A DNA stretch of 64,000 nucleotides from Deltaproteobacteria bacterium (lineage in GTDB: Bacteria; Desulfobacterota; GWC2-55-46), in assembly GCA_016212705.1 (NCBI GenBank), contig JACREU010000006.1:25030-89029 (forward strand), read 5' to 3'. The notes beneath the pieces were generated by a model. It ran no database searches, was not told the DNA's origin, and saw nothing but the letters and a program-made list of their open reading frames with translations. Of this stretch, positions 5,568 to 28,826 are shown one piece after another. The position numbers were made by a program, and so were the translations under genes. Numbering within the stretch: the stretch's first letter is position 1; each line of letters begins with the position of its first letter.

Positions 5568-6869
5568 ATGGTTATCCTTGTAACGATCATACTGTTCGCC
5601 GTAGCGCTGGCGATATTCATCCGACATGAGAAAAACAAACACGCCGTCGTCTCCGAGAAGGTCAAGGAGGCGATCGAATGCGGCACCTACGAGCCCATCT
5701 CACTCCACCCCTACATTGACCCTAACAAGTGCATCGGTAGCGGCGCGTGCGTCAAGGCCTGCCATGAGAAGGACGTCATCGGCCTCTCAAACGGCAAGGG
5801 GAGGCTTATAAACGCGTCGATGTGCGTGGGGCACGGCGCCTGCGCGCTCGCCTGCCCGGTTGGCGCGATAACGCTCGTCTTCGGCACCGCGAAAAGGGGG
5901 GTTGAGATACCTTATGTGGACCCGTACTTCGAGACTAACGTCAAGGGCATATACATAGCCGGCGAGCTCGGCGGCATGGGGCTTATAAGGAATTCACTCG
6001 TCCAGGGCATGCAGGCCATGAACAACATGGCGGAGAGCCTGAAGGAGGCGGGGCCTGCGCCCGCCGGTGCATACGATGTCCTAATCGTCGGCGCGGGGCC
6101 CGCAGGAATAGGCGCGACCCTGAAGGCCATGGAAAAAAAGCTTAGCTATATGCTCGTCGACCAGGACGAGTTCGGCGGCACGGTGGCCAACTTCCCTGTC
6201 CGCAAAATTGTTATGACCGCGCCCGTGGAACTCCCGTTGTACGGGAAGGTCCAGTTCAGGGAGACGACCAAAGAGACGATAATGGAGCTCTGGAACAAGA
6301 TCAGGCAGGAGACGGGGCTTAAAATAAACGCGAAGGAGAAGCTTACTGGCGTTGAGCGCCTGTCCGACGGGTTCAAGGTAAAGACCGCAGGCGGTGAATA
6401 CACTACGCGCAAGCTCCTCCTCTGCCTCGGCAGGAGGGGCACGCCGAGAAAACTCGGAGTACCCGGCGAAAGCCTGCCGAAGGTCTCCTACAGGCTCATA
6501 GACCCGGCACAGCACAAGAACGAAAAAGTGATAGTCGTGGGCGGAGGCGACAGCGCAGTTGAGGCCGCTATGGCCATCGCCGCCGAGGACAATGAAGTAA
6601 TACTCTCATATCGCAAGGACACCTTCGGCCGCATCAAGGCAGGCAACAAGACGCGCCTTGACGAGGCCGTTAAGAAGGGAGGCGTGAAGCTCGTCCTCAA
6701 TTCCAACGTGACCGAGATACTCCCGAAGGAAGCCAAGCTGGACGTCGCCGGGGCGGTCGAGACCGTCCCGAACGACTACATCTATGTGTTCGCCGGCGGC
6801 GAGCTCCCCAACGCATTCCTCAAATCCATAGGTCTTAAAATCGAAACCCATTACGGCATGCCATCGTAA
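5568..6869 (+). CDS. membrane-anchored 2x[4Fe-4S] ferredoxin domain fused to an FAD/NAD(P)-dependent oxidoreductase (thioredoxin-reductase-like fold)
   Basis: N-terminal TM helix; CIGSGACVKAC and CVGHGACALACP cluster motifs; GAGPAG and GGGDSAVE dinucleotide-binding motifs. Confidence 0.8.
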   Translation: MVILVTIILFAVALAIFIRHEKNKHAVVSEKVKEAIECGTYEPISLHPYIDPNKCIGSGACVKACHEKDVIGLSNGKGRLINASMCVGHGACALACPVGAITLVFGTAKRGVEIPYVDPYFETNVKGIYIAGELGGMGLIRNSLVQGMQAMNNMAESLKEAGPAPAGAYDVLIVGAGPAGIGATLKAMEKKLSYMLVDQDEFGGTVANFPVRKIVMTAPVELPLYGKVQFRETTKETIMELWNKIRQETGLKINAKEKLTGVERLSDGFKVKTAGGEYTTRKLLLCLGRRGTPRKLGVPGESLPKVSYRLIDPAQHKNEKVIVVGGGDSAVEAAMAIAAEDNEVILSYRKDTFGRIKAGNKTRLDEAVKKGGVKLVLNSNVTEILPKEAKLDVAGAVETVPNDYIYVFAGGELPNAFLKSIGLKIETHYGMPS

Positions 6870-8887
6870 TTTCTGTAGCGCGGCAGTATGTTGCCGCTCC
6901 CGGTCTTCCCGTGACAGCTCTCGCATTTCTTCGGCGTATCGGCGAATACCTTGGTGCTGTGGCACCTGATGCATTCCTTTACCGCGTGTTCCCTGACGAG
7001 CGGGAATGTCGTATCCCTGTCGTGGTCGAACGACGTCTTTTTCCAGCCCTCAGGCGTATGACACTTGTCGCATTTCGCGCCGAGCAGTTTTTCATGCGGG
7101 TCTTTTGGCCCGTGACAGCTGACGCACCCCTCGAACTTGAACTTCCCCGACTTGTGGCATTGCGAGCACCATACCTCGGCGTGCCTGCCGGCAAGCGCGT
7201 ATTTGGCCTCTTTACCGTGGTCGAAGACCTCGGACGGGACATTCCATGTGCTAGAGTCGCGGTCGTGGCAATCCGCGCATGTCTTTCCTTCGACCTTCTT
7301 CCTGTGGTCGTGGAAATGGCACCCCTCGCCGCCGCATGTCTTGTGCTCCAGGGGCTTCAAGTGCCCTTTTGCGTGGCACTTGGCGCATTCAACCTTCAGG
7401 TGCTTGCCCTTGAGCTCAAAGCCCGTTTTCACGGCATGATCGAAGTCCTTGTATATCCTCCAATTGAAGGACGCCTTGTCGTGGCATTCGAGGCAGGGTT
7501 TGTCCCCGGTCTGACCCTTGTGCCTGTCCCCGTGGCAGTTGGCGACACCACAGCTACCATGCTCCAGGGGCTTCAAATGCCCCTTCTTGTGGCATTTGCC
7601 ACACTCGAGTTTCGCGTGCCGCCCCTTCAGCTCAAATTCCGAGACCCTGGAATGGTCGAATATGCCCCGTATCTTCCAGGAGACGATGTCGTCCAGATGG
7701 CAAAAAGTGCACGCCTTGTTATTTGTCTGGCCTTTATGAAAATCCCCGTGACAGCTGGCAATACCGCAACTGCCGTGCTCCAGGGACTTGAACTTGCCGT
7801 TTACATGACACTTGGTACACTCGATCTGGTCGTGTCGGCCCCGGAGCCTGAAGTTCATCTTCCAGTGCTCGACCGTGTCCCTGGCGCTCCACGACTCTAT
7901 AGTTTTCGAGTGGCACTCCGTGCACTCCTTTTGACCGAATTGCCCCTTGTGCCTGTCCCCGTGGCAGTTGGCGGCGCCGCAAGTCGAGTGCTCCAGGGGC
8001 TTGAACCGCTTGTTAACATGGCATTTGGCGCAGACGAGCTTCGCATGCTTTCCCTTGAGTACAAAGGACGCGACCGAATGGTCGAAAGAGTCGGATAAGT
8101 CCCATTTTTCCATCGTGCTCTTGTGGCACTCGGTGCACTCTCTTCTACCGAACTGGCCCTTGTGTTTGTCTCCGTGGCAGTCGGAGGTGCCGCAACTATT
8201 GTACTCCAGCTTGAAACGCCCGTTCACATGGCATTTAGCGCATGAGAGCTTTGTGTGGGCCCCTTTAAGGGTAAATCTGCTGTCCTTGTCGTGGCTGAAT
8301 TTCAGCTTCTCCTTCCACCCCTCCGGCTCGTGGCACTTCGCGCAGTCGGTCCCGAGCTGTTTTTCGTGCTTGTCCTTGTGGCACGATACGCATTCCCTTA
8401 CCTGGCCCGAGTAGACGCCCTGCGTTTTATGGCACTTCCTGCACTCAAGCGCGGTATGCTTGCCCTTGAGGATAAAGCCCGTAAGGTCGTGCTTGAACTC
8501 CTTCTCTTTTATATTTATGAGGCTGTGGTCTTTCCCCTGGTGCTCGGCGTGGCAAGTTATGCAGGGGTCCTTGAAGCGCGCGTGCACGCCCTCGTTCCTA
8601 TTTATGCGCTCGGCGAGATTATCGTGGCACTCCAGGCACTTCGCGTCTGTGACGCCGCTACCCACGGTGTGGCATAGGGTGCAGTTTCCCATGCCTTCGT
8701 ATTTGGCGTGTTTTTTCGAAAGCTCGCCGGGGCTGAATAGCCAGCCCGTCGTGTCGGCCCCGATGGCGCTGGCCGGCGAGATGCAAGCGAACGCGCAGAG
8801 GACGAGCGCCGCCAATATGAAAGGACGCATCGGCAGTCCGTTCAGAATAACCCTGCCGTGCACTCCATTGAAGGGCTTTTTCGGCAT
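6851..8887 (-). CDS. multihaem c-type cytochrome with 26 haem-binding motifs, built from tandem c7/c3-like trihaem modules
   Basis: 21 CXXCH plus 5 CX4CH (CGTSDCH, CGAANCH, CGIASCH, CGVANCH, CGGEGCH) in 678 aa. Signal peptide MRPFILAALVLCAFACISPASA. An alternative start at 8830 would begin at that signal peptide. Confidence 0.9.
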   Translation of the reverse strand: MPKKPFNGVHGRVILNGLPMRPFILAALVLCAFACISPASAIGADTTGWLFSPGELSKKHAKYEGMGNCTLCHTVGSGVTDAKCLECHDNLAERINRNEGVHARFKDPCITCHAEHQGKDHSLINIKEKEFKHDLTGFILKGKHTALECRKCHKTQGVYSGQVRECVSCHKDKHEKQLGTDCAKCHEPEGWKEKLKFSHDKDSRFTLKGAHTKLSCAKCHVNGRFKLEYNSCGTSDCHGDKHKGQFGRRECTECHKSTMEKWDLSDSFDHSVASFVLKGKHAKLVCAKCHVNKRFKPLEHSTCGAANCHGDRHKGQFGQKECTECHSKTIESWSARDTVEHWKMNFRLRGRHDQIECTKCHVNGKFKSLEHGSCGIASCHGDFHKGQTNNKACTFCHLDDIVSWKIRGIFDHSRVSEFELKGRHAKLECGKCHKKGHLKPLEHGSCGVANCHGDRHKGQTGDKPCLECHDKASFNWRIYKDFDHAVKTGFELKGKHLKVECAKCHAKGHLKPLEHKTCGGEGCHFHDHRKKVEGKTCADCHDRDSSTWNVPSEVFDHGKEAKYALAGRHAEVWCSQCHKSGKFKFEGCVSCHGPKDPHEKLLGAKCDKCHTPEGWKKTSFDHDRDTTFPLVREHAVKECIRCHSTKVFADTPKKCESCHGKTGSGNILPRYRNYDGMP

Positions 8888-8891
8888 CCTT

Positions 8892-9806
8892 TTAGACCGT
8901 CGGTCTGAATATGAAGTAGGCCGCGATGTGCAGGAACATTATAAAGAACATCAGTAGGGCGAGCGGTATATGTATCACATGCCAGTAGTTGAGGAGCTTT
9001 TGCGAGGTTTTCAGGAAGCTCCTTTTCCTTACGAGCGATGCCTTCTTTTTGAAGACCGAGATTATCTCGCGGCGCGCACTGCCCGGGAGGTTGTATTGGC
9101 TTTTGAGCTTCGATTTCAGCTCGAAGATACGGTACATGTTCCCGAAGTCGTTCCGGATGTAGAAAAAGAGCGCCTTTAAGGGATTCAGGTCCGTTGCCCC
9201 CGCGCCAGGCGCGATTATCTTCTCCAACATACCCGAGAGCTTGGCGTCCGGCAACATCTCTCCCAGGTCCTTGTCCAGCCCCTCGACCATGGAATCTATA
9301 TCGCCAGACTTGAGCTCCGTGCCGTTTATCGAGCGAGGTATCTGGACATAGATGTACCTGCCCAGTATGCCGAAGCACATCGTGGTGATCATCGCCCAGA
9401 AGCTCGTGGCCACTATGCCGTTGAGTTTGAAGGTGGTATGGAAAACGATAAGCGTGGGCCCCATGAGACCAAGAAATATATGGACGAGGAGCCATATCCT
9501 TAAGGAGCCGAGACGGTTTAAATGGTGCACCCTTTTTCGGAGGCTGTAGAGCATGAGAGAGCACATCATCGCGCCGCCCAGCCACCCCAGGGGGAGCCAT
9601 ATGCCACGGCTCGGCCTGTGCAGGGCCGGGAAAGAGATGAGGAGGCCGCTTCGATGTAACGCGCTCAGGATACTGTACGCGGGGTAATAATGTTGCGTCA
9701 GGCTCTCATAGCCCAGGATGACGATGGCCGTTGAAATTGGGACTATGAACAGCCACTTTACGATAGAGCCTTTTTTTGCCTTTTTGGAATCCGATTTTTT
9801 GTCCAT
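8892..9806 (-). CDS. integral membrane protein (about 5 TM), putative dihaem cytochrome-b-like electron carrier
   Basis: Start taken at MDKKSDSKK (ATG 9806). Two H-x13-H pairs lie in hydrophobic helices (HIFLGLMGPTLIVFH and HIPLALLMFFIMFLH). The stop is 4 nt before the 26-haem cytochrome gene. Confidence 0.7.
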   Translation of the reverse strand: MDKKSDSKKAKKGSIVKWLFIVPISTAIVILGYESLTQHYYPAYSILSALHRSGLLISFPALHRPSRGIWLPLGWLGGAMMCSLMLYSLRKRVHHLNRLGSLRIWLLVHIFLGLMGPTLIVFHTTFKLNGIVATSFWAMITTMCFGILGRYIYVQIPRSINGTELKSGDIDSMVEGLDKDLGEMLPDAKLSGMLEKIIAPGAGATDLNPLKALFFYIRNDFGNMYRIFELKSKLKSQYNLPGSARREIISVFKKKASLVRKRSFLKTSQKLLNYWHVIHIPLALLMFFIMFLHIAAYFIFRPTV

Positions 9807-10145: not shown

Positions 10146-10844
10146 ATGGCGAAAAAATCTATCCTTATCATCTTTCTGCTGGCGATTTTTTTGACCGCGG
10201 CCGCAATGGCCGACGACCACCCCGAGCATAAGGGCGCGAACACCGAATCTGATACCAGGGCAAAAAACGATGTCTTGACAAAGATGGATAACAGCAAGTC
10301 CTACCTCAAATCAGCCGAGAAGATAGTTGCTCAAGGCGACAACAAGGAGGCGGCCGCGCTTTTGAAAAACGCGCAGCTTATGATGAAGGAGGGGATATTC
10401 CATTACGACTCCGGGCAGTTCACCTATTCGGTCGAAGATTTCATTGAGGTCGTCCAGTTAGCCACGCACGCTATGATACTCGTATCGAACGATCAGAACT
10501 GGGAGACGCGCGAGCTCGTGATGTATGAGGAATCCTTCCAGAGCGAGAAAAGGGAGACGGAGCGCAAGGAATCCACCATAAAGAAAAATATGGATGAGGC
10601 CGTTGTGTTCATCAACACGGCGGAGCGGATATTGAGGAGGTTCCCGGACGAGGGCGCGTTCAGGATGCTGGTCGAGGCCCAGGACTCGCTCATGGTCTCA
10701 AACGCCGCGCTCGAGGAGAACAACTATTACGGCTGTCTCGAGGAGCTCGACAAATCATATAAGCTGGCGACCAACGCCATCAGGGACGCATACAAGGCGC
10801 ATGGGATAAGCTTTGTGTTCAACCCGCAACCCGTGAGAAATTAG
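10146..10844 (+). CDS. secreted hypothetical protein (helical, Glu/Lys-rich)
   Basis: Signal peptide MAKKSILIIFLLAIFLTAAAMA; AGAGAGG ribosome-binding site. I do not recognise a family. Confidence 0.7.
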   Translation: MAKKSILIIFLLAIFLTAAAMADDHPEHKGANTESDTRAKNDVLTKMDNSKSYLKSAEKIVAQGDNKEAAALLKNAQLMMKEGIFHYDSGQFTYSVEDFIEVVQLATHAMILVSNDQNWETRELVMYEESFQSEKRETERKESTIKKNMDEAVVFINTAERILRRFPDEGAFRMLVEAQDSLMVSNAALEENNYYGCLEELDKSYKLATNAIRDAYKAHGISFVFNPQPVRN

Positions 10845-11152: not shown

Positions 11153-12526
11153 CTACTCCTCCTCTTCCCCCTCTACACCCTCCCCCTTCGCCCTCTTGAG
11201 AATCCTATACAAGGTTTTTCTGTCTATGCCGAGTATCTCGGCGGCCATGTTCTGGTTGCCTCCGGTGTGCTTGAGTATCTGCTCGATGTAATCGATCTTT
11301 ATCTCCCCGAGCGTCCGGAGCGTACCGGGTCTCTCCTCGGCAAACCGCGCTTCCGCGCCGTGCAGCTCTGACGGGATGTCGGACGGCAGGAGGACCTTGT
11401 TTGAGGTAAGCGCCAGCGCCCTCTCTATCGCGTTCTCGAGCTCCCGGATGTTCCCCGGCCAGTTGAACCGGACGAGCGTGTCCATCGCCTCCTTCGATAT
11501 CCCGTGGACGTCCTTCTTCGTCTTGCTTATCGCCTTCTGGAAGAAGTGGTCGACGAGGAGAGGTATGTCCTCGGGGTGCTCGCGGAGCGGCGGCAGGGTT
11601 ATCGTAACGACGTGGAGCCTGTAGAAGAGGTCCTCCCTGAACTGCCGGGCCTTCACCATCGATAGGAGGTCCTTGTTGGTCGCGGCGAGGAACCTGACAG
11701 AGACCGGGATGTTCTGGTTCGCGCCGATCCTCCGTATCTCTCCCTTTTGAAGTACGCGGAGCAGTTTTACCTGCAGGTTCAGCGGCATGTCGCCTATCTC
11801 GTCCAAGAAACACGTCCCGCCGCTCGCCTCTTCAAGGAGCCCCTTCTTATCCGTGAGCGCGTTTGTAAAGGCCCCCTTCGCGTACCCGAATAGCTCGCTC
11901 TCAAGGAGGTTCTCAGGGAAGGCCGCGCAGTTCAGGACGATGTACGGCTCTTTGGAGCGCGGGCTGTTGTCGTGTATCGCCCTTGCTATGAGCTCCTTGC
12001 CCGTGCCGCTCTCTCCCTGGATGAGGACCGGTACTTCGCTGGCCGCGACGCGGGCGACTGTCTTGTATATCTCGAGCATCTTCGGGCTCGACCCGATGAT
12101 CGTCTTGAAGGCGAACCCCTCGGTCGCCGGCACGGCCGGCGCGTTCTTCTTAAGGAGCGCCTTCTGTTCGAGGCATCTCGCCACCTTCTGCTTTATGTCG
12201 TCCATCTTGAAGGGCTTTACGATATAGTCGTAGGCCCCGTTCTGTATCGCCTCTATCGCCGTCTCGAACGAGCCGAAGGCGGTTATGACTATGGTCATCG
12301 TGTCGCTGCTCATGCGCTTGAAGGCGTCGAGCACGTCGAGCCCTCCGAACTCAGGCATGCGCAGGTCCGTGATGACGAGGTCGAAGCGTTCAGCCTCGCC
12401 TTTCTTCACCGCCTCTTCGCCGCTTGTCGCGAGCTCGACCCGGTAACCCTCCCTGGAGAGCACCTCGGCGAGGAGCTCGGCGGCCACAAGGTCGTCGTCT
12501 ACTACGAGGATCGAATGCGCTTTCAT
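11153..12526 (-). CDS. sigma54-dependent response regulator (NtrC family)
   Basis: REC domain (DDD...DLRMP), AAA+ core (GESGTGKE, GAFTNA, ESELFGY), C-terminal Fis-type HTH. Confidence 0.92.
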   Translation of the reverse strand: MKAHSILVVDDDLVAAELLAEVLSREGYRVELATSGEEAVKKGEAERFDLVITDLRMPEFGGLDVLDAFKRMSSDTMTIVITAFGSFETAIEAIQNGAYDYIVKPFKMDDIKQKVARCLEQKALLKKNAPAVPATEGFAFKTIIGSSPKMLEIYKTVARVAASEVPVLIQGESGTGKELIARAIHDNSPRSKEPYIVLNCAAFPENLLESELFGYAKGAFTNALTDKKGLLEEASGGTCFLDEIGDMPLNLQVKLLRVLQKGEIRRIGANQNIPVSVRFLAATNKDLLSMVKARQFREDLFYRLHVVTITLPPLREHPEDIPLLVDHFFQKAISKTKKDVHGISKEAMDTLVRFNWPGNIRELENAIERALALTSNKVLLPSDIPSELHGAEARFAEERPGTLRTLGEIKIDYIEQILKHTGGNQNMAAEILGIDRKTLYRILKRAKGEGVEGEEEE

Positions 12527-14250
12527 ACCGTGATCTTCTCCAATGATGGCAGGAGCACCCTGAAGACGCTCCCTTTTTGCGGTTCGCTCTCGACCGTCAG
12601 AAAACCGTGGTACCCGGCGACTATCTCCTGCGAGATGGCGAGCCCGAGCCCCGTACCCTTGCCGTGGGCCTTTGTCGTGTAGAAGGGCTTGAAAATATCC
12701 TTGAGTAGCGCTTCCGGTATGCCCCTGCCGTTGTCCTCTATCGCGACCTCTGCCCAGTGGACCCTCCGGAGCCCTTCGGTCTTGAGGATAAGCCCCTCGG
12801 GGCTCGCGACCCTCCTCGTGGTAATCGTTATCGCACCGGCGCCGGGGAGCGCGTCTATGGCGTTATCGATGAGGTTAAGGCATACCTCTTCGAGTTTCGA
12901 CCTCGAACCGTAGACCAGCGGCAGGTCCGGCGCGAATGTCTTCGTGACCCTAATGCCCTTTGAAATAGTCTCCGGCATGACGAGTATGGAGAGGTCCTCG
13001 ATGACCTCGTTCAGGTCAACGAATCCCGGCCTCGACTCCGGCTGTCTCGTGGTATCGAGTATGTTCTGTATGCTCGTTATTATCCTCTCGACCTGGGACT
13101 GCATGATGGTAAGCCGCCTCAATGAGTCTTTCGCGAGCCCCGGCTCCTCCATGAGGAGCTGGAGATGCCCGGAGACGGAATGGAGGGGCGTGCCGAGCTC
13201 GTGGGCGACCGTCGCCGCGAGCTGGCCCACTGCCGCGAGCCTCCTCGAGTGGCCGAGCTTCTTCTGTATGTCGTAAATCGACTGGTTGGCGAGGACGAGG
13301 TCCTCGTTCCTTTTCAGGAGCTCCTCGGTCGCCTCCCGGACCCCGGTCTGCAGTTCGTCGTTCTGCCTGTTTATCTCCTTAAGCAGGAACTCCTTTTCTT
13401 CCGAGGACCGGCGGATGGTGTCGACCATCGAGTTGAAGTGCTCCGAGAGGAGCCCGAGCTCGTCGTTCGCCGTTGAGGCGACAGCGACCCTTAAGTTGCC
13501 CTCCTTTACCTCAGAGATTGCGGACAGGAGGTTCTGTATGGGCCTGTTGACCATCTGGTTCATGGACAGTATCAGGACCCCCGTGATGATCGCCACGGCG
13601 ATGAGCGCCACGGCGAGCGTCGTCTGTTTTTTCGAGGTGAGGAGCGTGTTCACCGCCTCGCTCGAGGCCTTTACCCCGGCCATGCCGATAATGAGTTCGC
13701 CGTACCTTACCGGCATGAGGACGCTCAGGTACTTGAAATCGTCCTCGGCCTCCTGCACGACGACGGGCCTGCCGTCCTTGACCTGGTTTATGTAATCGAG
13801 CGTCAGCTGTGTCTGTGCGGCCTGCCTCTTTATCTTCGAGAAGAACGGGGACAGGGTGCCGTCCTGCTCGAAGAGGACGATGTCTACCCGCGTTATATGG
13901 TTGGAGAGGTACAGGAGCTTTTCAAGCCCCTCGCCCAGGCCCGCCCTTATCCTGCCCCTCTTCGCCTCACTCAGGTCCGGGTCCGGGGAGGGCTTTGCGG
14001 CGTCCTCGGAGAGGACGTGGAAGGAGCCTAAGTACTCCATCTCCTCGACGCTCCTCTGGCGGAGCCTCTCTGCCCCATCGCCTGCGGCCGCTATCGAGGA
14101 CTCCACCTCCTTGACTATCTTGGCGGCGTCCTCGAGGAGCAGACCCTCCTGGTCCCTCTCCACCGCCCTTTGAGTGTAATAGGCGGCTACGAAGAGGACC
14201 AGCGCGAGCGTCGTTACTATGAGGATTACTATTTTTATCTTGATCCGCAT
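12523..14250 (-). CDS. sensor histidine kinase (2 TM, extracytoplasmic domain, HAMP, HisKA, HATPase)
   Basis: H-box HELGTPLHS, N/G boxes (DNAIDA, DNGRGI, GTGLGL), and a 4-nt overlap with the NtrC-type regulator gene. Confidence 0.9.
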   Translation of the reverse strand: MRIKIKIVILIVTTLALVLFVAAYYTQRAVERDQEGLLLEDAAKIVKEVESSIAAAGDGAERLRQRSVEEMEYLGSFHVLSEDAAKPSPDPDLSEAKRGRIRAGLGEGLEKLLYLSNHITRVDIVLFEQDGTLSPFFSKIKRQAAQTQLTLDYINQVKDGRPVVVQEAEDDFKYLSVLMPVRYGELIIGMAGVKASSEAVNTLLTSKKQTTLAVALIAVAIITGVLILSMNQMVNRPIQNLLSAISEVKEGNLRVAVASTANDELGLLSEHFNSMVDTIRRSSEEKEFLLKEINRQNDELQTGVREATEELLKRNEDLVLANQSIYDIQKKLGHSRRLAAVGQLAATVAHELGTPLHSVSGHLQLLMEEPGLAKDSLRRLTIMQSQVERIITSIQNILDTTRQPESRPGFVDLNEVIEDLSILVMPETISKGIRVTKTFAPDLPLVYGSRSKLEEVCLNLIDNAIDALPGAGAITITTRRVASPEGLILKTEGLRRVHWAEVAIEDNGRGIPEALLKDIFKPFYTTKAHGKGTGLGLAISQEIVAGYHGFLTVESEPQKGSVFRVLLPSLEKITV

Positions 14251-14444
14251 ATACGGAATTCAACGGGACGGCCGGGAAGTTTTGCCGGGGTTTTAAAGAA
14301 AACGCTTATTAAGGTTAAGAGATTATAGCTTGAGAAAACGCGCCAAGCCACTCTTTTTTTTGCGCTTTCAGAGGCGATAGCGGTTTTTTCTCATCAAAAC
14401 GCCCGGACGCGGCCTCCGGACATTAAAACCGATGCCGCTGAAAA

Positions 14445-14478
14445 CAAAAAGACCCCGCGCAGGGCGGGGTCTTTTTTA
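14445..14478. terminator. bidirectional intrinsic terminator
   Basis: AAAAAGACCCCGC-GCAGG-GCGGGGTCTTTTTT; 8-bp GC stem flanked by an A-run and a T-run; 33 nt past the stop of the GGDEF gene. Confidence 0.8.
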
Positions 14479-14510
14479 TTCATCACGGACGCTTCGACCG
14501 GTTTTTTACC

Positions 14511-16667
14511 TCAGCAAGCCTCTTTGAGCGCCTCCTCGATTACGACCATGTTCTTGCCCCTGTTCTTCGCCCTGTATAGGTTGTCGTCAGCGGCCTTTAT
14601 GAGGTCTTCCATCGTCCTTATCTCCTCGGACGGGAAGAACCCTATGCCGATCGATACGGTCACCTTCCGGCCGTTCATGCCTGAGAACATATTCTCTTCG
14701 ACCGCCTTCCTCACCTTCTCGGCGAGGACCACCATCCCGTCCGGCGGGCAATGAGTGACGAACCCCATGAACTCCTCGCCGCCGTAGCGCGCCCAGACGT
14801 CCGTAGTACGGGTCTTTGCCTTGAGTATGCCGGAGAGCTCGGCGAGTATCCTGTCCCCCTGCTGGTGCCCGAACGTGTCGTTTATGGACTTGAAGTTGTC
14901 TATGTCTATCATCATTACGGCGAGCTGGTGGCGGTAGCGCTTGGCCTTTGAAAACTCCGCCGAGAGCACGTCGAAGAGGTGTCTCCTGTTGTACAGCCCG
15001 GTCAGCGGGTCCGTGACCGAGAGCTTCTCAAGCTCCTTGTGGATGAGCGCGTTGTCGAGCGCGATCGCTATCTGGGCGACGAGATACTCTATGTGAAGCA
15101 CCTCATCGGGGTTATAGGGGTGCAGACTGCCGAGGACGAATACCCCCGAGAGCTTCTCCTTGCAGATCATGGGGAACCAGGCGAGCCCTGACGGCATTAT
15201 CTTCGTAAACCCCGTCTCTACCGAGAGGTTCGCGTCATTTATGCCCTCAAGGAGAACGGTCTTCCTTTCGAGCGCGCACTTTCCGGCGAGCCCCTCGCCG
15301 AAGTTCAAGGTCCTCACCTCTCCCTCGCCCGCGCCGAAGGAGGCGACGGGTTTCAATAACTCGTTAGCCTCGTCGTGTATGTAGACGGCCCCCATGTGCG
15401 AGTTCGTGAGCTCTATAGTGCGCCCGAGCGCCTTTCTGAGGAGCGCCTCCGGCTCGTTGCTCTGGATGAGTATCTTCGAGAGCTCGTTGAAGCGGTTGAG
15501 CCTTTTCTCCCGGAGCTGTATGGAGCCGAGCATCTGGTTGAACCCGTCGGCTATCTTTTCGAAGTCGTCACCTGTACTTACCTCCACCCTGACGTTCAGG
15601 TTCCCATTCGCGGTCTCGTCCATCGCGGAGGTGATGGCGCTTATGGGCTTTACCGTGTCCCGGTAGGAGAGGCCGGCGAATATGAGGCTGAATACGACCC
15701 CGAGGCAGGTGACGAGGAGTATGTTCTTCTTCATCTCCACGAGGTTGTGCCTTACCTCGGACCCGAATATGCCTACGGCGAGCGCGCCGACGACCTTTCC
15801 GTCGGCTCTTGTGAGCGGCTCGATGGCGAGGAACGCCTCAACCCCTTCAAGGAGTGTCGCCCCGGCGTACGGGACGTTACTCAGCACCTTCGCCCCTATG
15901 TCTTCGGGGAGCGCCGACATGGGGCCTAAGACGGGCCTTGAGACCGACGTAGAGGCTATTACGCGCGCCTCCCTCTCGGTGTCCGCGATTATGGCCGATG
16001 TCACGTTATAGTTCTCGTATATGGCCCTCGGCAGCCATTCGTACCCGTTAAGGAGTATACCGGTTACGAACGCGCCCGAAGACCTCCCGCCGTTTACAAC
16101 CGGGGTCACCGCTATCTGCATGAGGGCGCCGCCTTCGACCCCGGATGCGAGCTCCGCGCCCTCCTTTGCAAGGAAGTCCCTTGTAACCGTCTCCGTGGAG
16201 GTGACGGGCTCTGCCGAGGACAGCGCCCTTGCGACTATGCCGTTCACATCGAGGATGTCGCCGGTCCTGCCGTTCCTCCTCGCGATGACGCGCCCGTCCG
16301 GGCCGACGACGGCCCAAAGGTCGACGTAGCCCCTGGAGGCGGCGTACCCGTCAAGGAGCTTCTTTAGCCCGGCGGAATCCCGCCTCGCGACCGCCTCCCT
16401 TACGGCCTCCTCGGACCCTGCCTGCAACATGCCGAGCTTCATCTGCTCCATCCTCATCTGATAGAGGCGTAGCGCCCCCTTGAGGTTGGATTTGAGCGAA
16501 TCGACGGCCTCCCTGTCAGTCTCTCTTGAGAGGGTATGGGTGGCGTAATAATAGAAACCCCCGCCGAGGACCGTGATTATGAGGAGGAATGCAAGGAGGG
16601 TCTTGGTGGCTATCGACATGGGGACCCTCCAGCCCCCCAATTTGACCTTATAGACCTTTTCCGGCAT
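14511..16667 (-). CDS. diguanylate cyclase with periplasmic sensor domain, HAMP, GAF and GGDEF domains
   Basis: 718 aa. TM - ~280-aa extracytoplasmic region - TM - HAMP - GAF-like - GGDEF with intact RYGGEEF. AAGGAG ribosome-binding site before ATG 16667. Confidence 0.88.
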   Translation of the reverse strand: MPEKVYKVKLGGWRVPMSIATKTLLAFLLIITVLGGGFYYYATHTLSRETDREAVDSLKSNLKGALRLYQMRMEQMKLGMLQAGSEEAVREAVARRDSAGLKKLLDGYAASRGYVDLWAVVGPDGRVIARRNGRTGDILDVNGIVARALSSAEPVTSTETVTRDFLAKEGAELASGVEGGALMQIAVTPVVNGGRSSGAFVTGILLNGYEWLPRAIYENYNVTSAIIADTEREARVIASTSVSRPVLGPMSALPEDIGAKVLSNVPYAGATLLEGVEAFLAIEPLTRADGKVVGALAVGIFGSEVRHNLVEMKKNILLVTCLGVVFSLIFAGLSYRDTVKPISAITSAMDETANGNLNVRVEVSTGDDFEKIADGFNQMLGSIQLREKRLNRFNELSKILIQSNEPEALLRKALGRTIELTNSHMGAVYIHDEANELLKPVASFGAGEGEVRTLNFGEGLAGKCALERKTVLLEGINDANLSVETGFTKIMPSGLAWFPMICKEKLSGVFVLGSLHPYNPDEVLHIEYLVAQIAIALDNALIHKELEKLSVTDPLTGLYNRRHLFDVLSAEFSKAKRYRHQLAVMMIDIDNFKSINDTFGHQQGDRILAELSGILKAKTRTTDVWARYGGEEFMGFVTHCPPDGMVVLAEKVRKAVEENMFSGMNGRKVTVSIGIGFFPSEEIRTMEDLIKAADDNLYRAKNRGKNMVVIEEALKEAC

Positions 16668-16932: not shown

Positions 16933-18366
16933 TTACTGAGGCTTCGAGGCCTTGATATGGTGGAGGGCCTTCTTTGCGACTATCTCAGCGTACCTTACGC
17001 TGTCGCTTATGCCTATGCCGTGGTAGGCGGACCCGACGAGGTAGAACCCGGGGTACCCGGCGACCCGCTCATCTATCCAATCGATCCTCTCTTCGTGCCC
17101 TATGGTGTACTGCGGCATGGAGTTCATCCACCTGAATACGCGCGTAAGCACAGGCTCGGCGTCTATGCCCATGATGTCTTTTAATTCCTGCCTTACGGAC
17201 CTTATCATCTCCTCGTCGCTCGCGCCGAGGAGCGAGGAGTCCTTGGAGCCGCCGACGAAGCACCTTATGAGGACGGAGTCGTCAGGGGCGCGAAGGCTGA
17301 ACTTGACCGAGGTCCATGTCGCGGCCATTATCTTCCTCTTCTCGACCTTCGGGACGACGAACCCGAAGCCGTTCAGGGGGTGTTTTATGTCTTTTTTCCT
17401 GAATGCTATGGATACCGTCGCCGTGGAGACATAGGGGATGGTGAGGAGCTTACCCGGGAGATCCTTATCGAACTTTACAAGAGAGGCGGCGGCGTATGCG
17501 GGCGCGGCAATGACTACGGCGTCGGCGGCGATTTTCTCGTTGCCTTCGATCGTTATCTCATAGGCGTCCGCCTTGCGCTCGACCCCTGAGACGTTGACGC
17601 CGGTCGAGACGACGGTATCTTTCGAGGAGGAGACCTTCTCTTGCAGGGTATCTATGAGAGAGCCGAGGCCGTTCTTCAGGGTCATGAACATCGTGACCCT
17701 CTTCTTTGGCGCACCGGCCGCCGTCTTGTGGGTTTTCTTCAAAAGCTCCATCTTTTTCAGCATCCCCTTTATGAGGGAGCCGTAGTCCTCTTCGAGCTGG
17801 ACGAACTTCGGAAAACTCGCGCGGACCGACATCGTCTCAGGGTCCCCGGCGTGAACGCCCGCGACAAGCGGCTCGGCGATCTTCTCAAGCGCCTCGGCCC
17901 CGAGCCTCCTCCTTACGAAGTCGCCGAGGGACTCGTCCCCCTGCCCCTTCCTCTTCGGCACGAAGAGCTCCAGGGCCATCCTTATCTTTCCGGGGACGGA
18001 TATGAGGCTCGATGTGGCGAGCGGCAGTATCTTCGTGGGGACCATGAGGATAACGCCTTCCGGCAGGACGTGGAGCTTGCCGCGCGAGAGCACAAAGGTC
18101 TTCCTGTTCCGCTCGTTCGTCGGCAGGAGCTCGTCGCCGAGCCCCACCCTCTTGCAGAGCTCCATGGCCCAGGGTTTTTCGGAGAGGAAGCAGTCCGGGC
18201 CGCCCTCTATGAGGAAGCCGTCCGCGCGCTCTGTCCTGATGTTCCCGCCGAGCCTGTCCTTCCGCTCGATAAGCCTTATCTCGAATGGCGCGTCGGAGTG
18301 CTCCCGGAGGCTGTACGCGGTGGCGAGCCCGGCGATCCCGCCGCCTATTATGACGACCCTCTTCAC
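16933..18366 (-). CDS. hemY: protoporphyrinogen/coproporphyrinogen oxidase, HemY type (FAD-dependent)
   Basis: GTG start at 18366 overlaps the hemH stop (GTGA). VVIIGGGIAGLATAY FAD motif. The 82 upstream codons of the ORF model lie out of frame inside hemH. Confidence 0.88.
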   Translation of the reverse strand: MKRVVIIGGGIAGLATAYSLREHSDAPFEIRLIERKDRLGGNIRTERADGFLIEGGPDCFLSEKPWAMELCKRVGLGDELLPTNERNRKTFVLSRGKLHVLPEGVILMVPTKILPLATSSLISVPGKIRMALELFVPKRKGQGDESLGDFVRRRLGAEALEKIAEPLVAGVHAGDPETMSVRASFPKFVQLEEDYGSLIKGMLKKMELLKKTHKTAAGAPKKRVTMFMTLKNGLGSLIDTLQEKVSSSKDTVVSTGVNVSGVERKADAYEITIEGNEKIAADAVVIAAPAYAAASLVKFDKDLPGKLLTIPYVSTATVSIAFRKKDIKHPLNGFGFVVPKVEKRKIMAATWTSVKFSLRAPDDSVLIRCFVGGSKDSSLLGASDEEMIRSVRQELKDIMGIDAEPVLTRVFRWMNSMPQYTIGHEERIDWIDERVAGYPGFYLVGSAYHGIGISDSVRYAEIVAKKALHHIKASKPQ

Positions 18367-19286
18367 TGCCTCCGTTCGCCGTGGCTTACGATAGTGGACG
18401 CGAGGAGCTCCATGAACGCGGGAGCGGTGTTCAGAGAAGCGCTCCTCCTGAATACGAGCCCCGAGGACTCGGCTATGCCCTTGAAGAGTATGTCTATGTC
18501 GTAGAGCGTCTCTATGTGGTCGGCTACGAACCCGACCGGCACAACGACCACGCCCTTCTTGCCCATCTTCTTCGCGCCCTGTATCACGTCTTCGGTCGAT
18601 GGCCCGAGCCACTCCCTCGGCCCCGCGCCCTTGGACTGGAAGGCCACCTTGTAGTCAATCTTTACGCCCATCCTCTTTACTATTTCCGAGACCGACTGGT
18701 TGACGAGCATCTCATACGGGTCGCCCTCGAGCCCGACCCACGGGAGGCTGTGCGAGCTGAAGATGACGAGCGCGTCCTTCGGGTCATTGAAGGAGGCGAG
18801 CTCTTTTTTGACGTTCCCGGCGACGGTCTCAAGGAACTGTGTCTTAAGATGGAAGCTCGGCGTTACCACGACGAACGGCGTCTTGCCCTGTTCCGAGAGA
18901 GCGCCCTCGACGTCGGAGTTGTACGCGCCTGTGGCCACGAGCGACACGAACGGCGCCATTATGACGGCTACCGCGTCCGTCACGCCGTCCTCCTTCATCT
19001 GCCGGAGCGTGTCCTTTATGAAGGGGTCCCAGTAGCGCATACCGACGTAGGCCTTGTAATCGAGCCCCTGACTTGCGATGACCGCCCTGATTGATTCCGC
19101 CTGGGCCCTTGTCAAGTCGAGGAGCGGGGACTTGCCGCCTATGAGCTTGTATCTTTCCTTTATCTTTTCCACGAGCTCAGGGGTAACGGGCCTGCCCTTG
19201 AGGACGTTCCTTATGAAAGGCTCCACCGAGTCGATAGAGTCCGCCCCGCCGAATGCGAGGAGGAGAAATGCCTTCTTCTTTTCCAT
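18363..19286 (-). CDS. hemH: ferrochelatase
   Basis: 307 aa. N-terminus AFLLLAFGGADSIDSVEPFIRNVL..GRP and later SSHSLP..GDPY motifs. GGGAGGAG ribosome-binding site. Confidence 0.9.
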   Translation of the reverse strand: MEKKKAFLLLAFGGADSIDSVEPFIRNVLKGRPVTPELVEKIKERYKLIGGKSPLLDLTRAQAESIRAVIASQGLDYKAYVGMRYWDPFIKDTLRQMKEDGVTDAVAVIMAPFVSLVATGAYNSDVEGALSEQGKTPFVVVTPSFHLKTQFLETVAGNVKKELASFNDPKDALVIFSSHSLPWVGLEGDPYEMLVNQSVSEIVKRMGVKIDYKVAFQSKGAGPREWLGPSTEDVIQGAKKMGKKGVVVVPVGFVADHIETLYDIDILFKGIAESSGLVFRRSASLNTAPAFMELLASTIVSHGERRQ

Positions 19287-19299
19287 TGTCTTCTCCTCC

Positions 19300-20328
19300 C
19301 TATTTACCGCTGAACTCGTGTACGGCGTCGACTACCGCCCTAACGCTGTCGACCGGGGTGCCGAGAACGATGCCGTGGCCGAGGTTGAATATGTGCCCCG
19401 CCCTGCCTCCCGCCATGTCTACTATCTCTTTTACGCGCCGCCTTATCTCCTTTACAGGGCCGAAAAGGACGACCGGGTCAAGGTTCCCCTGTATAGCATG
19501 ATCGTAACCTATGGTCTTCCACGCCTCGTCGAGCCTCACCCTCCAGTCCACCCCTATGACGTCGCCGCCGCCCTCGGCGACGAGGTTAAGGAAAGTCCCG
19601 GTGTTGGTCCCGAAGTTTATGACAGGGACCGTGCCCTTAAGTCTTTCTATCACCTTTTTCGTGTACGGGAGCGCGAACTCCCTGAAGTCGTCGGGCCCCA
19701 GGCATCCGACCCAGCTGTCGAAGAGCTGTACGACCTCGGCCCCGGCCGCGATCTGGGCCTTCAGGTACGCGACGACGACGTCGGAAATTTTGTCCATGAG
19801 GGCCTTCCAGCCCTCCGGGTCGCCGTACATGAGCTTCTTTGTGTTGACGTAGTTCCTCGACCCCTCGCCCTCTATTATATAGCTCGCGAGCGTAAAGGGC
19901 GCGCCCGAGAAACCGATGAGCGGCACCTTGCCGGCGAGCTCGGCCTTTACCATCTTTATCGCCTGCATGAGGTATGGGACGTGGACCTCGGGGTCTATCA
20001 TCCTGACCGCGTCTATGTCCTTCCTCGTCCTCACCGGGTTCCTTATTACGGGCCCCTCGTTCTTGGCGAATTCCAGCTCTATGCCCATGCCGGGCAGAGG
20101 CAGGAGGATGTCCGCGAATATGATGGCGGCGTCGAGATCAAAGGCCTTGATGGGTTGCAACGTCACCTCCGCCGCGAGCTCGGGGTTCCTGCACATCTCC
20201 AGGAACGAGTGCTTCTCCCTTATGGCCATGTACTCCTTCATGTACCGGCCCGCCTGGCGCATGAGCCAGACCGGGGTGCGGTCGGATGTCTCCCTCCGGC
20301 ACGCCTTTAAGAACCTGTCGTTCGCCAT
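19300..20328 (-). CDS. hemE: uroporphyrinogen decarboxylase
   Basis: 342 aa. RTPVWLMRQAGRYMKEY signature. GAGGAG ribosome-binding site. Confidence 0.93.
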   Translation of the reverse strand: MANDRFLKACRRETSDRTPVWLMRQAGRYMKEYMAIREKHSFLEMCRNPELAAEVTLQPIKAFDLDAAIIFADILLPLPGMGIELEFAKNEGPVIRNPVRTRKDIDAVRMIDPEVHVPYLMQAIKMVKAELAGKVPLIGFSGAPFTLASYIIEGEGSRNYVNTKKLMYGDPEGWKALMDKISDVVVAYLKAQIAAGAEVVQLFDSWVGCLGPDDFREFALPYTKKVIERLKGTVPVINFGTNTGTFLNLVAEGGGDVIGVDWRVRLDEAWKTIGYDHAIQGNLDPVVLFGPVKEIRRRVKEIVDMAGGRAGHIFNLGHGIVLGTPVDSVRAVVDAVHEFSGK

Positions 20329-21265: not shown

Positions 21266-22057
21266 TTGAAAACCAATATACCGATCATACTCTCGGTCCT
21301 CCTATTGACGGCGGCAAGCTACGTTTTCTCCCAGTGGACCAGCTACCATAACTTCGAGTCCAAGTGCCTGGACTGCCACATTACCGTCCCGCAGAAGGGT
21401 GACACACCCCAGGCGTTCACAAAAGACATCACCGTCATGTGCACCGGTTGCCACAAGGACTCCGAGAAGCTCTCCCACCCCGTGGGCATGAAGCCTTCCA
21501 TGAAGGTCCCCTCGTCCTTTCCGCTCGACTGGAAGGACGAGATGACCTGCATCACCTGCCACACCGTACACGACAAGGGCCACGGGGACTTCCATATGCG
21601 TTCCAAGGCCTCCGGCGAGGGGCTCTGCACGCTCTGCCACGTGGACCTCGAGGCCGAGATGCACAAGATATCCGTGGGCACGGCGCATGTATCAAGCTCC
21701 ACCGGGACCAAGTACATAGCGGACGACCTCGGCGCCGTACTCGACGAGCTTTCGATAAAGTGCCTCGCCTGCCACGACGCGACGATCGCCAAGGACACGC
21801 TTGTCGAGAGTACCGTGGACATCTTCCACAACGCCAACTCCATAGGCGTAAGCCACCCCATAGGCGTCTCTTACGCCGAGACAAAGCGCAAGTACATGGG
21901 CGCGTACAGGGACATTGACGAACTGCCCCCCGAGATAAAGCTCTTCGGAGGGCTCGTCGGGTGCGGCAGTTGCCACAACCCGTACTCCAAACAGCACAGC
22001 GAGCTCGTCATGTCGAACGAAAAAAGCGCCCTTTGCCTCGCCTGCCATGTTAAGTAA
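21266..22057 (+). CDS. heptahaem c-type cytochrome
   Basis: 7 CXXCH (CLDCH, CTGCH, CITCH, CTLCH, CLACH, CGSCH, CLACH). TTG start 1 nt after the HAMP gene stop. Signal or anchor MKTNIPIILSVLLLTAASYVFS. Confidence 0.88.
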   Translation: MKTNIPIILSVLLLTAASYVFSQWTSYHNFESKCLDCHITVPQKGDTPQAFTKDITVMCTGCHKDSEKLSHPVGMKPSMKVPSSFPLDWKDEMTCITCHTVHDKGHGDFHMRSKASGEGLCTLCHVDLEAEMHKISVGTAHVSSSTGTKYIADDLGAVLDELSIKCLACHDATIAKDTLVESTVDIFHNANSIGVSHPIGVSYAETKRKYMGAYRDIDELPPEIKLFGGLVGCGSCHNPYSKQHSELVMSNEKSALCLACHVK

Positions 22058-22171
22058 GGGCGCGCGCGGCAGATAATAATTAATGGCGGGTTAAGGGCTG
22101 TTTAATGTGGTTGGTTTATATTTTCGGCAAGGTTGATTGAAGGATGTATTTATGTTAACCTCAAGAGGCCT

Positions 22172-22753
22172 ATGAGCGCAAATGCCTTTCCCAAGTACCG
22201 CAGGCGCAGTTTCTTCATCAAGAAGAGGCTCCAGGGGCGGTTCATAGCCGGGTTCTCGATCGCCGTGTTTCTGGGCTATTTTCTGAACCTCCTCCTTGTT
22301 TATTTTTTAATTGACAGGGAATTGACCTCGGAGTTATATAGAATCCATCTGAGGATAAGGACGACCTCCGAGATAGCCGTCCCGATCCTCTGGAAGTTAA
22401 GCCTCATAATCATACCGCTTATCATCGTCATCTCGGCGGTCCTCGGGTATGTCCTTACGCGGAGAGTGGAACTGCCGCTCCTAAAGTTCAAACAGGCCTT
22501 GAAGAAAACCGCCGAAGGGGATTTTACGTCCCGCCTCATGGAAGACAAGGTCGCCGTCGGGCTTTCAGAGGCGTTCAACGCGATGACAGCCTCGCTCTCC
22601 GTCCCCTTCAGCTCATTGAAAGAGTCGGCGGAAAGGCTCGACGAGGCTTACGGGAGGCTTGAAAAGAAGCCGGGCGGCCTCAAGCGCGCGCTCGGCGGCA
22701 TCACCGAGGCGCGCATAAAGACCGAGAGGGCGCTCGACAAGCTCAAGGTCTGA
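22172..22753 (+). CDS. small 2-TM HAMP-domain membrane protein, paralogue 2
   Basis: Start at ATG 22172 (AAGAGG upstream); the ORF model starts at TTG 22133. Same architecture as 20674..21264, with a similar basic N-terminus (FIKKRLQGRF versus FVKRAFKLKF). Confidence 0.78.
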   Translation: MSANAFPKYRRRSFFIKKRLQGRFIAGFSIAVFLGYFLNLLLVYFLIDRELTSELYRIHLRIRTTSEIAVPILWKLSLIIIPLIIVISAVLGYVLTRRVELPLLKFKQALKKTAEGDFTSRLMEDKVAVGLSEAFNAMTASLSVPFSSLKESAERLDEAYGRLEKKPGGLKRALGGITEARIKTERALDKLKV

Positions 22754-22763
22754 ACGGGTCTTG

Positions 22764-22792
22764 AAAGGCCCGGCGGTTAAACCGGGCTTTTT
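22764..22792 (+). terminator. intrinsic terminator inside the cytochrome cluster
   Basis: AAAGGCCCGG-CGGTTAAA-CCGGGCTTTTT, 11 nt after the HAMP-2 stop. Confidence 0.6.
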
Positions 22793-22951
22793 CGAAAACG
22801 CGTCGGGCGGAGCGAAACCGTCAGAGCCGTAAATTACCGGTCTCATCATCCCGGCCCCTCCACAATGCGGCCCGGGACGGCCAGCTCATGTCGATCGCCT
22901 GCGCGGGCCGTACTTACGGCCCGCCTAACCACGAACGAACGGAAAGGGACT

Positions 22952-24082: not shown

Positions 24083-24117
24083 GCGCAAGACCGGGTGTTC
24101 CGGAAAAACACAGGAAA

Positions 24118-24726: not shown

Positions 24727-24884
24727 ACCTGGGCACCTGCCGGAGAGATGGGGGGGAGGGGGGGCGCTCCTACGCAGGTCCTTCTTAAATGAACTTATCG
24801 TAATCAGGCGCGCGGCGGAATCGGCCGGCGTCGCGCCATGCGCGCCTTTGTTAAAAACGTCTTGACCCGTCACCACGGACCATT

Positions 24885-25943: not shown

Positions 25944-25982
25944 AGCACAAAAACACTTTTTCGGGAAGTGAGCTGGTTAAAG

Positions 25983-28250: not shown

Positions 28251-28349
28251 AAGGGGCGGGCATGAAAAGGCGCAGGGTATTCTGGCCCAGGTTAAAAACG
28301 ACAAGCCCGCTTTCATGGCGGAAGGGGCTAAAAACCTCCCGGGATTAAT

Positions 28350-28802: not shown

Positions 28803-28826
28803 CGGAAGAACTAACGGAGGTAGGAA

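Follow-up and report, generated by a model that had tools for sequence, protein, structure and literature searches.

Three neighbouring genes in a 64,000-nucleotide window of the Deltaproteobacteria bacterium contig JACREU010000006.1 (the whole stretch of DNA that was analysed, to which all coordinates below refer) encode an inner-membrane protein (IMP), a c-type cytochrome with 26 haem motifs and a membrane-anchored iron-sulfur (Fe-S) flavoprotein. On the basis of their genomic context, we propose that the three products form a three-part transmembrane electron conduit, a reading to which we assign a probability of about 0.5. The sequence motifs, their invariance among homologues and the reciprocal linkage of the genes were observed directly; the membrane topology was predicted. 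A first-pass annotation of this DNA had drawn attention to the IMP and cytochrome genes and suggested a quinol-to-periplasm role for them; nothing that we found points to quinol, and the flavoprotein partner suggests the NAD(P)H side.

IMP loci were collected by scanning one genome per GTDB species, which gave at least 589 loci; the best 80 were examined, and together with two Sulfuricaulis-type Gammaproteobacteria loci they make up the 82 IMP loci considered here. They are spread over more than 10 phyla, among them Nitrospinota, Nitrospirota, Desulfobacterota/'Deltaproteobacteria', Bacteroidota (Prolixibacteraceae and the cultured Maribellus sediminis), Ignavibacteria, Calditrichota, Zixibacteria, KSB1, Latescibacterota, Acidobacteriota and Myxococcota. 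In the majority of these 82 loci, the IMP gene is immediately followed, on its own strand, by a large cytochrome gene (20 to 73 haems). The closest relatives of the window locus have a single cytochrome of 24 to 67 haems after IMP. Bacteroidota, Ignavibacteria and Calditrichota have a uniform 20-haem protein (530 to 600 aa) in this place, followed by cytochromes with 28 to 73 haems. In loci L021 to L080, which belong to Bacteroidota, Ignavibacteria, Calditrichota, Zixibacteria and KSB1, almost every first cytochrome after the IMP or flavoprotein gene contains exactly 20 CXXCH motifs in 530 to 600 aa, and the next one has 10 to 73 haems; this combination of a constant first and a variable second cytochrome suggests a fixed adaptor plus a variable wire.

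The flavoprotein belongs to the same neighbourhood. Its orthologues (41 to 58% identity) are present in 61 of the 82 loci, and the gene directly abuts the IMP gene on the same strand in 37 of those 61. Several gene orders were found: IMP, flavoprotein, 20-haem cytochrome and large cytochrome in Prolixibacteraceae and Maribellus; flavoprotein, IMP and 20-haem cytochrome in Calditrichota, KSB1 and Zixibacteria; IMP, cytochromes and flavoprotein in Ignavibacteria; a flavoprotein gene divergent from IMP-cytochrome-cytochrome in Sulfuricaulis limicola; and IMP, cytochrome, a porin-like gene and flavoprotein in the closest relatives of the window. The reverse search, in which an independent metagenome collection was searched with a flavoprotein profile, was judged on loci flanked on either side by 4 kb or more, 16 in number: 15 of them contain IMP, and 14 contain cytochromes with at least 8 CXXCH motifs. 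With the required flanks lowered to 1.2 kb, IMP was present in 37 of 47 loci. In four Nitrospinota loci (L017-L020), the IMP and flavoprotein genes stand as a pair between housekeeping genes, and no multihaem cytochrome is encoded nearby.

The IMP gene (8892..9806, minus strand) starts with the ATG at 9806 and encodes a putative dihaem-b transmembrane electron carrier of 304 aa, matching the public annotation with 100% identity. Its stop codon (8892-8894) and the ATG of the cytochrome gene (8885-8887) leave a gap of 4 nt, as the first reading of the sequence had stated. Five transmembrane (TM) helices with two H-x13-H pairs, which had also been described there, were confirmed by hydropathy and by an AlphaFold2 (AF2) model (predicted local distance difference test, pLDDT, 81; predicted template modelling score, pTM, 0.73): TM1 spans residues 12-40, TM2 70-92, TM3 102-124, TM4 131-154 and TM5 265-300. 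According to the charge distribution, including the basic RKR stretch placed inside after TM2, the N-terminus is predicted to lie inside, and TM3 and TM5 are predicted to run from inside to outside. TM3 (9435..9503, minus strand) carries W105-x3-H109-x13-H123, in which H109-x13-H123 reads HIFLGLMGPTLIVFH, and a conserved HTTFK loop follows directly after H123; TM5 (8907..9014, minus strand) carries W275-H276-x2-H279-x13-H293, in which H279-x13-H293 reads HIPLALLMFFIMFLH. Between TM4 and TM5 lies a cytoplasmic helical insert (residues 155-264; 9015..9344, minus strand) with 19 K/R, consistent with the positive-inside rule, whose helices cover residues 167-263 in the AF2 model. This insert is 105 to 149 aa long in all 46 homologues aligned and is a candidate docking surface for the flavoprotein.

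The aligned homologues range from 88% down to 20% identity to the window protein. Y87, R90, K91, W105, H109, G113, G116, H123, G146, G149, R150 and Y153, and in the C-terminal part W275, H276, H279, P281 and H293, are invariant in 46 of 46, so that the four histidines of the two pairs are fully conserved even among the most distant members. Because exactly five of the ten histidines of IMP (109, 123, 276, 279 and 293) are invariant and the remaining five vary freely, the H-x13-H pairs are not a product of chance. Neither cysteine is conserved. Just before the glycine pair G146/G149, at position 145, 33 of 46 homologues have Phe, as does the window protein, and 13 of 46, distant members only, have Ser. 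IMP matched no Pfam or NCBIfam model at its cut-off, and 80 homologues are all annotated as hypothetical, none with a precomputed Pfam domain. The family is large: an exhaustive profile search gave 4,624 clusters (50% identity) at E <= 1e-3 and 1,096 at E <= 1e-30. Some Sulfuricaulis/Gammaproteobacteria homologues (P0227 and P0234, and L082 1506-2414; 261 to 302 aa) are named 'pyridine nucleotide-disulfide oxidoreductase' by NCBI and have no such domain; the name has probably leaked from the adjoining flavoprotein gene. An apparent IMP fusion in L066 (an 809-aa open reading frame, ORF) was rejected as an artefact of an open upstream frame in high-GC DNA, and the long IMP representatives P0462 and P0469 have no recognisable redox domain.

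Parallel helices with a 14-residue histidine spacing are the classical arrangement for two stacked bis-His b haems, as in cytochrome b and ferric-reductase domains, and on the two parallel helices of IMP this spacing corresponds to a rise of about 21 Å. TM3 and TM5 both run from inside to outside, which would bring H109 and H279 close to the cytoplasmic face and H123 and H293 close to the periplasmic one. As far as the predicted topology reaches, it does not contradict the expectation that the histidines occupy facing positions, the two helices being parallel with one histidine of each near either face. A known non-redox family was also sought for IMP and none matches; the weak matches are solely to haem-b families. 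Among the 46 IMPs, sub-threshold Pfam matches were to DUF4405 (14/46), Ferric_reduct (10/46) and Ni_hydr_CYTB (2/46). The best Ferric_reduct (PF01794) match in the family reached 23.7 bits (E 5.3e-5), with profile positions 1-61 on TM2-TM3; the window IMP itself scored 13.7 bits against PF01794, below the gathering threshold of 28, and its weak similarity to Ferric_reduct and DUF4405 falls on TM5. It seems likely from these sequence features that IMP binds two stacked b haems; the dihaem-b reading of the first-pass annotation thus keeps the conserved histidines and the haem-b similarity on its side, but gained no structural match.

A membrane protein of this kind has been described previously. 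He, Barco, Emerson and Roden (2017) reported a 'conserved inner membrane protein', annotated as hypothetical, with a length near 300 aa, five TM helices, a WX3HX13H motif on each of TM3 and TM5 and SGXXG on TM4. It adjoins cytochromes of extreme haem number in the putative PCC3 and PCC4 clusters, and they proposed two b haems and a link to quinone (PMC5566968). The window IMP agrees with this class in size, in its five TM helices, in both WX3HX13H motifs (46/46), in the glycine pair G146/G149 and in the adjacent cytochrome gene, whereas Phe replaces the Ser before the glycine pair; the assignment was made by these published features. The PCC3 and PCC4 IMPs are themselves not detectably similar to one another (PMC5566968). 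The idea that the pairing is of a new type, with a membrane protein of no family, has to be given up: the class, its motifs and the dihaem-b proposal were all in print (PMC5566968). The published cases come from Proteobacteria; most include a porin and an extracellular cytochrome, and they were interpreted as systems of iron oxidation linked to quinone. The family of the window IMP extends over more than 10 phyla. PCC3 proper has the porin and the extracellular multihaem cytochrome within the cluster, and the window cluster has neither.

The flavoprotein gene (5568..6869, plus strand; convergent with the cytochrome gene) encodes 433 aa, the proposed cytoplasmic NAD(P)H-oxidising partner. The protein matched Pfam Fer4 and Pyr_redox_3 at 5.5e-40, and its closest PDB entry is the YpdA/Bdr structure 7a7b (2e-25). 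It begins with a TM anchor (residues 1-19; 5568..5624, plus strand; hydropathy 2.85) followed by a basic stretch; the anchor is present in at least 44 of 53 orthologues, and no twin-arginine motif was found at the N-terminus. From the positive-inside rule we infer that the protein beyond the anchor is cytoplasmic. Next comes a ferredoxin-like domain (5700..5882, plus strand) with the motifs C55-x2-(S/T)-x2-C61-x3-C65-P and C86-x2-H89-x2-C92-x3-C96-P, in which all six cysteines are conserved in 53/53 and H89 in 52/53 orthologues. Position 58, where motif 1 would have its second Cys, holds S or T in 41/53 orthologues and C in 7/53, and H89 replaces the second Cys of motif 2. These ligands suggest that one cluster is [3Fe-4S] or Ser/Thr-ligated and the other a His-ligated [4Fe-4S] cluster, a kind known from electron exit points in hydrogenases.

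The remainder is a two-dinucleotide-fold domain like those of thioredoxin reductase (TrxR) and YpdA (6069..6857, plus strand), with the FAD motif G175-x-G-P-A-G, the NAD(P)H motif G325-G-G-D-S-A, and R349 and R355. GxGPAG, GGGDSA and both arginines are invariant among the 53 orthologues, and these motifs together with R349/R355 would correspond to an NADPH-type signature. Ala179 (51/53) stands at the position of the active Cys of Bdr, and there is no CXXC motif, which makes a thiol-disulfide reaction by this protein unlikely. Its identification as a YpdA/Bdr bacillithiol-disulfide reductase (TIGR04018) was rejected, with 157.9 bits against a cut-off of 339.9 and the active Cys replaced. Because the domain order is TM anchor, Fe-S domain and FAD/NAD(P)H domain, the clusters would be set against the membrane.

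The cytochrome gene (6851..8887, minus strand) encodes a 678-aa protein, matched with 100% identity by a public protein, that we regard as a putative periplasmic haem wire. A hydrophobic helix at residues 24-42 followed by ASA indicates a Sec signal peptide. A recount of the ORF gave exactly 21 CXXCH and 5 CX4CH motifs, whose starts cluster as 3+3+(3x5)+3+2, that is, eight trihaem modules and a terminal dihaem unit, the same figures as those of the first-pass annotation. The protein contains 54 Cys, 61 His and 6 Met. Its N-terminal hexahaem 'head' (residues 44-200; 8288..8758, minus strand) is conserved: the first 150 aa or so, comprising two modules, are collinear with the N-termini of IMP-adjacent cytochromes elsewhere (37 to 54% identity in the 25 best of the listed matches), and the repeats behind them differ in number. 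The conserved head is thus proposed to be the docking end at which the cytochrome would meet IMP.

Behind the head, five tandem trihaem modules (residues 196-552; 7232..8302, minus strand), each CXXCH-CX4CH-CXXCH, repeat with a period of 70 to 72 aa. These had been described as repeating almost verbatim; they do share a common skeleton, but their pairwise identity of 38 to 56% falls short of that. Each of the five has 6 to 8 His, and they contain 2 Met in all, at no recurring position; with so few Met and so many His per module, all haems of the cytochrome are probably bis-His. Pfam Cytochrome_C7 (PF14522) matched the protein in four stretches with 56.4 bits against a cut-off of 24.8, and Cytochrom_c3_2 matched with 51.9 bits. 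In a single comparison, Geobacter PpcA (query sequence confirmed against PDB entry 1OS6) was collinear with the module at residues 202-256 at all three haem sites (39% identity, E 0.004). The proposed polymer of c7/c3-like trihaem modules is well in line with these results. The search for homologues found 2592 sequences. A phmmer search of all PDB chains gave no cytochrome match even at E 10, the solved GSU1996 chain included; the AF2 model was poor (pLDDT 64, pTM 0.28), and Foldseek with this poor model returned zero matches. The cytochrome and flavoprotein genes are convergent, with their 3' ends overlapping by 19 bp at 6851-6869, which leaves no space for an intergenic terminator.

Taking these features together, we infer haem b binding, a direct Fe-S-to-haem contact, an NAD(P)H donor and an outward direction of flow, and the conduit might operate as follows. 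The flavoprotein, tethered by its single TM helix at the cytoplasmic face, would oxidise NAD(P)H at FAD, and single electrons would pass from FAD through the two Fe-S clusters beside the membrane. The inner haem b (H109/H279) and then the outer haem b (H123/H293) would move each electron about 20 Å across the membrane, where the hexahaem head of the cytochrome would accept it at the periplasmic face. The chain of bis-His c haems could then carry or store the electron across the periplasm, over about 25 nm if it scales like GSU1996. Outward flow would be helped by both redox potential and membrane potential, so the trio would serve as a route of electron disposal or extracellular reduction and not as a proton pump. 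The presence of a conserved, TM-anchored Fe-S flavoprotein partner favours a donor on the NAD(P)H side over a quinol oxidase. More tentative, and falling short of even odds in our judgement, is the specific claim that the trio is a quinone-independent NAD(P)H:multihaem-cytochrome transmembrane oxidoreductase, a three-component counterpart of NOX or of a dihaem complex II.

Several results weigh against the conduit. A Foldseek search of the PDB with the IMP AF2 model gave a best E of 0.59, and the matches, to long-helix proteins such as ABC transporters and BAR domains (E > 0.5, TM-score < 0.25), were discarded as not meaningful. The sequence profile of the IMP family found in the PDB only coiled-coil noise on the cytoplasmic insert, and hhalign of this profile with Escherichia coli MsrQ gave a probability of 0.3, the single-sequence template being a weak one. 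Since all three comparisons were negative, haem binding by IMP is argued from motifs and context. A natural IMP-flavoprotein fusion was sought among the homologues and not found, three Nitrospinota loci (L001-L003) have IMP alone among housekeeping genes, and in the window the flavoprotein gene is convergent, not co-transcribed with IMP. Finally, gene adjacency fits a direct Fe-S-to-haem transfer and a quinone-mediated step alike.

[quoted passage not shown] The conserved histidines and weak Pfam matches apply to it equally, a quinone link has been hypothesised in print (PMC5566968), and Fe-S-to-quinone transfer has textbook precedents in complexes I and II; the opposite strand of the flavoprotein gene in the window, and the IMP loci with no flavoprotein within the flanks examined, would also be natural under it. 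However, no quinone-site signature was identified in IMP, and the TM anchor sets the Fe-S domain at the membrane surface. The tight reciprocal linkage of IMP and flavoprotein (15/16), their same-strand abutment in 37 loci and the existence of the pair without any cytochrome together exceed what would be expected of enzymes that share only a diffusible pool. Therefore, we consider that the IMP-cytochrome system is probably not quinol-fed, and that this alternative is less likely than the conduit.

Electrons could in principle also travel inward, with the cytochrome gathering them outside the cell or in the periplasm, for example from Fe(II), a role proposed for the PCC3 of iron oxidisers, IMP passing them across the membrane and the flavoprotein reducing NAD(P)+. 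Homologous clusters do occur in lithoautotrophs such as Sulfuricaulis limicola; the Sulfuricaulis cluster (IMP, a 24-haem and a 25-haem cytochrome, a 165-aa protein and an 848-aa protein with weak LamB similarity) matches the IMP profile at 1e-65 and looks PCC3-like. PCC3 is found with particular frequency among iron oxidisers, and in Sideroxydans CL21 its IMP gene was up-regulated in cells capable of iron oxidation (PMC12442390). On bioenergetic grounds, however, transfer into a negative-inside compartment and onto a couple at about -320 mV would be doubly uphill, with no coupling site visible, and most carriers are heterotrophic Bacteroidota, Ignavibacteria and Calditrichota; we regard inward uptake as improbable. 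Hardly credible at all is a biogenesis helper, in which IMP and the flavoprotein would stand outside respiration and supply haem or reducing power for the maturation of cytochromes with tens of CXXCH sites, in the manner of haem handling by CcsBA or of a DsbD/CcdA thiol relay: the TrxR/YpdA-like fold, the ccm genes adjoining the Sulfuricaulis cluster and the textbook fact that TM histidines bind haem in CcsBA too are set against an IMP with no conserved Cys and no WWD-type Trp cluster among its conserved positions (just W105 and W275), a flavoprotein with neither CXXC nor the Bdr-type Cys, and the Nitrospinota pairs with no cytochrome. Both readings fit the data less well than either the conduit or the quinol-linked enzyme.

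The other genes of the window add some context. A second cytochrome cluster (21266-29675, plus strand) encodes proteins with 7, 4, 11 (760 aa), 4 and 6 haem motifs; genes for two propeller proteins lie among them, one a BamB/PQQ-like beta-propeller (22865-24082) and the other with NHL repeats (24885-25943). By analogy, this cluster resembles outer-membrane conduits of the Uet/Ext type and could be the outer partner of the 26-haem protein. Immediately beside the IMP-cytochrome pair there is neither a further cytochrome gene nor a porin-like one. In the closest relatives of the window, a secreted porin-like protein of 415 to 443 aa follows the cytochrome gene (Porin_4 E 3.5e-5, below the cut-off; L004 9976-11223, L006 5526-6857, with counterparts in L005, L008-L011, L013, L016, L015 and L023), and tblastn found no counterpart of it in the whole window. 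The strand of the pair carries, upstream of it (11153-16667, minus), three regulatory genes: 11153-12526 for a sigma-54-dependent response regulator, 12523-14250 for a HAMP histidine kinase and 14511-16667 for a HAMP-GAF-GGDEF protein. Regulators of this kind were also seen at a few further IMP loci (L007, L018 and L030). Despite the neighbouring sigma-54 regulator, no sigma-54 (-24/-12) promoter was found upstream of the window IMP gene, and scans for sigma-70 promoters and terminators did not rise above chance. Three haem-biosynthesis genes, protoporphyrinogen oxidase-like, ferrochelatase-like and uroporphyrinogen decarboxylase-like by their translations, lie at a distance of about 7 kb from the cytochrome pair (16933-20328, minus strand). 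A divergent gene for a 232-aa secreted protein (10146-10844) was considered as part of the module and rejected, as it belongs to no family and has no counterpart in the other loci.

Part of what the window offers has precedents. Geobacter sulfurreducens GSU2210 has 27 haems (PMC10138318), a survey of Desulfuromonadia found a peak at 27 haems (PMC11492766), and in Gallionellaceae the periplasmic cytochromes of PCC3 contain 21, 24 or 27 (PMC10734462). The ratio of 678 aa to 26 haems, 26 residues per haem, is the same as the PCC3 median. With GSU2210, PCC3 and the IMP of He et al. on record, neither the length of the cytochrome nor its pairing with IMP is new, and the emphasis of the first-pass annotation on a chain more than twice as long as the GSU1996-type design is overtaken by these cases and by homologues in IMP loci with up to 73 CXXCH motifs. 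As of 2025, the function of PCC3 had yet to be verified, even though its IMP gene increased in expression in iron-oxidising cells of Sideroxydans CL21 (PMC12442390). For the flavoprotein link, the literature search found only the unnamed 'other redox protein' in Table S6 of He et al., which records porin-less trios of multihaem cytochrome, IMP and other redox protein, some of the redox proteins being of 412 to 425 aa (PMC5566968). In the searchable papers, we found no mention of the specific and reciprocal link to a TM-anchored Cys/His Fe-S flavoprotein, of the spread over more than 10 phyla or of the conserved cytochrome head.

The interest of the system lies in a testable hypothesis of three components and in the size of an unnamed family, not in the 26 haems. 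Electrons are known to leave the cytoplasmic membrane through CymA in Shewanella and through ImcH, CbcL and CbcBA in Geobacter; to our knowledge, this step is not known for most other phyla with giant cytochromes, nor for the PCC3 clusters that are used as markers of iron oxidation. A family of about 4,600 clusters, with no Pfam model or structure, occupies that position in the pathway, linked to a flavoprotein of the NAD(P)H type. Should the direct route hold, cytoplasmic reducing power would be discharged onto external acceptors, bypassing the quinone pool. The trio would then be the missing inner-membrane step of extracellular electron transfer (EET) in Bacteroidota, Ignavibacteriota, Calditrichota, Zixibacteria and many Desulfobacterota and Nitrospirota, and also that of the PCC3 clusters of iron oxidisers, which would export and not import electrons. 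This would call into question the direction assumed for PCC3, change how fermentative and facultative bacteria are scored for EET in metagenomes, and provide a compact three-gene module for engineering electron export.

Compared with known systems, the cytochrome is closest to GSU1996 (12 haems) and GSU2210 (27), which share with it tandem trihaem units of about 70 aa, periplasmic location, a low residue-to-haem ratio and a Cytochrome_C7 match. It is nevertheless not of the GSU1996 type as had been claimed: each domain of GSU1996 contains one His-Met haem (PMC10138318), whereas the window protein has no recurring Met for such a haem, a CX4CH middle site in five modules and probably all bis-His haems, and it does not match the GSU1996 PDB chain in sequence. 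Among inner-membrane systems, Geobacter CbcL and ImcH are entry points to periplasmic multihaem cytochromes, as IMP would be, but they carry their own c haems and use menaquinol. IMP lacks any c-haem motif, shows no sequence relationship to them and has a flavoprotein of the NAD(P)H type as its linked partner. The NOX/FRE family and MsrQ with Fre resemble the proposed IMP system: two bis-His b haems are bound by H-x13-H pairs of TM3 and TM5, a flavoprotein in the cytoplasm supplies electrons from NAD(P)H, and the electrons exit at the outer face. They differ from it in that the ferric-reductase domain has six TM helices and works with an FNR-fold domain; IMP has five helices and a 110-aa cytoplasmic insert before the last one, and would work with a separate TrxR-fold dehydrogenase bearing Fe-S clusters and with a multihaem cytochrome as acceptor. 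The dihaem succinate:quinone reductases and fumarate reductases with a five-TM anchor (Bacillus subtilis SdhC and Wolinella succinogenes FrdC) pass electrons between flavin, Fe-S clusters, a proximal and a distal haem b, and in the dihaem succinate:quinone reductases this transfer across the five-helix anchor is aided by the membrane potential. We propose the same logic here, with no match in sequence or fold; the flavin and the two clusters, with their His and Ser/Thr substitutions, would reside in one TM-anchored polypeptide of a different fold, and the acceptor would be a cytochrome c and not menaquinone.

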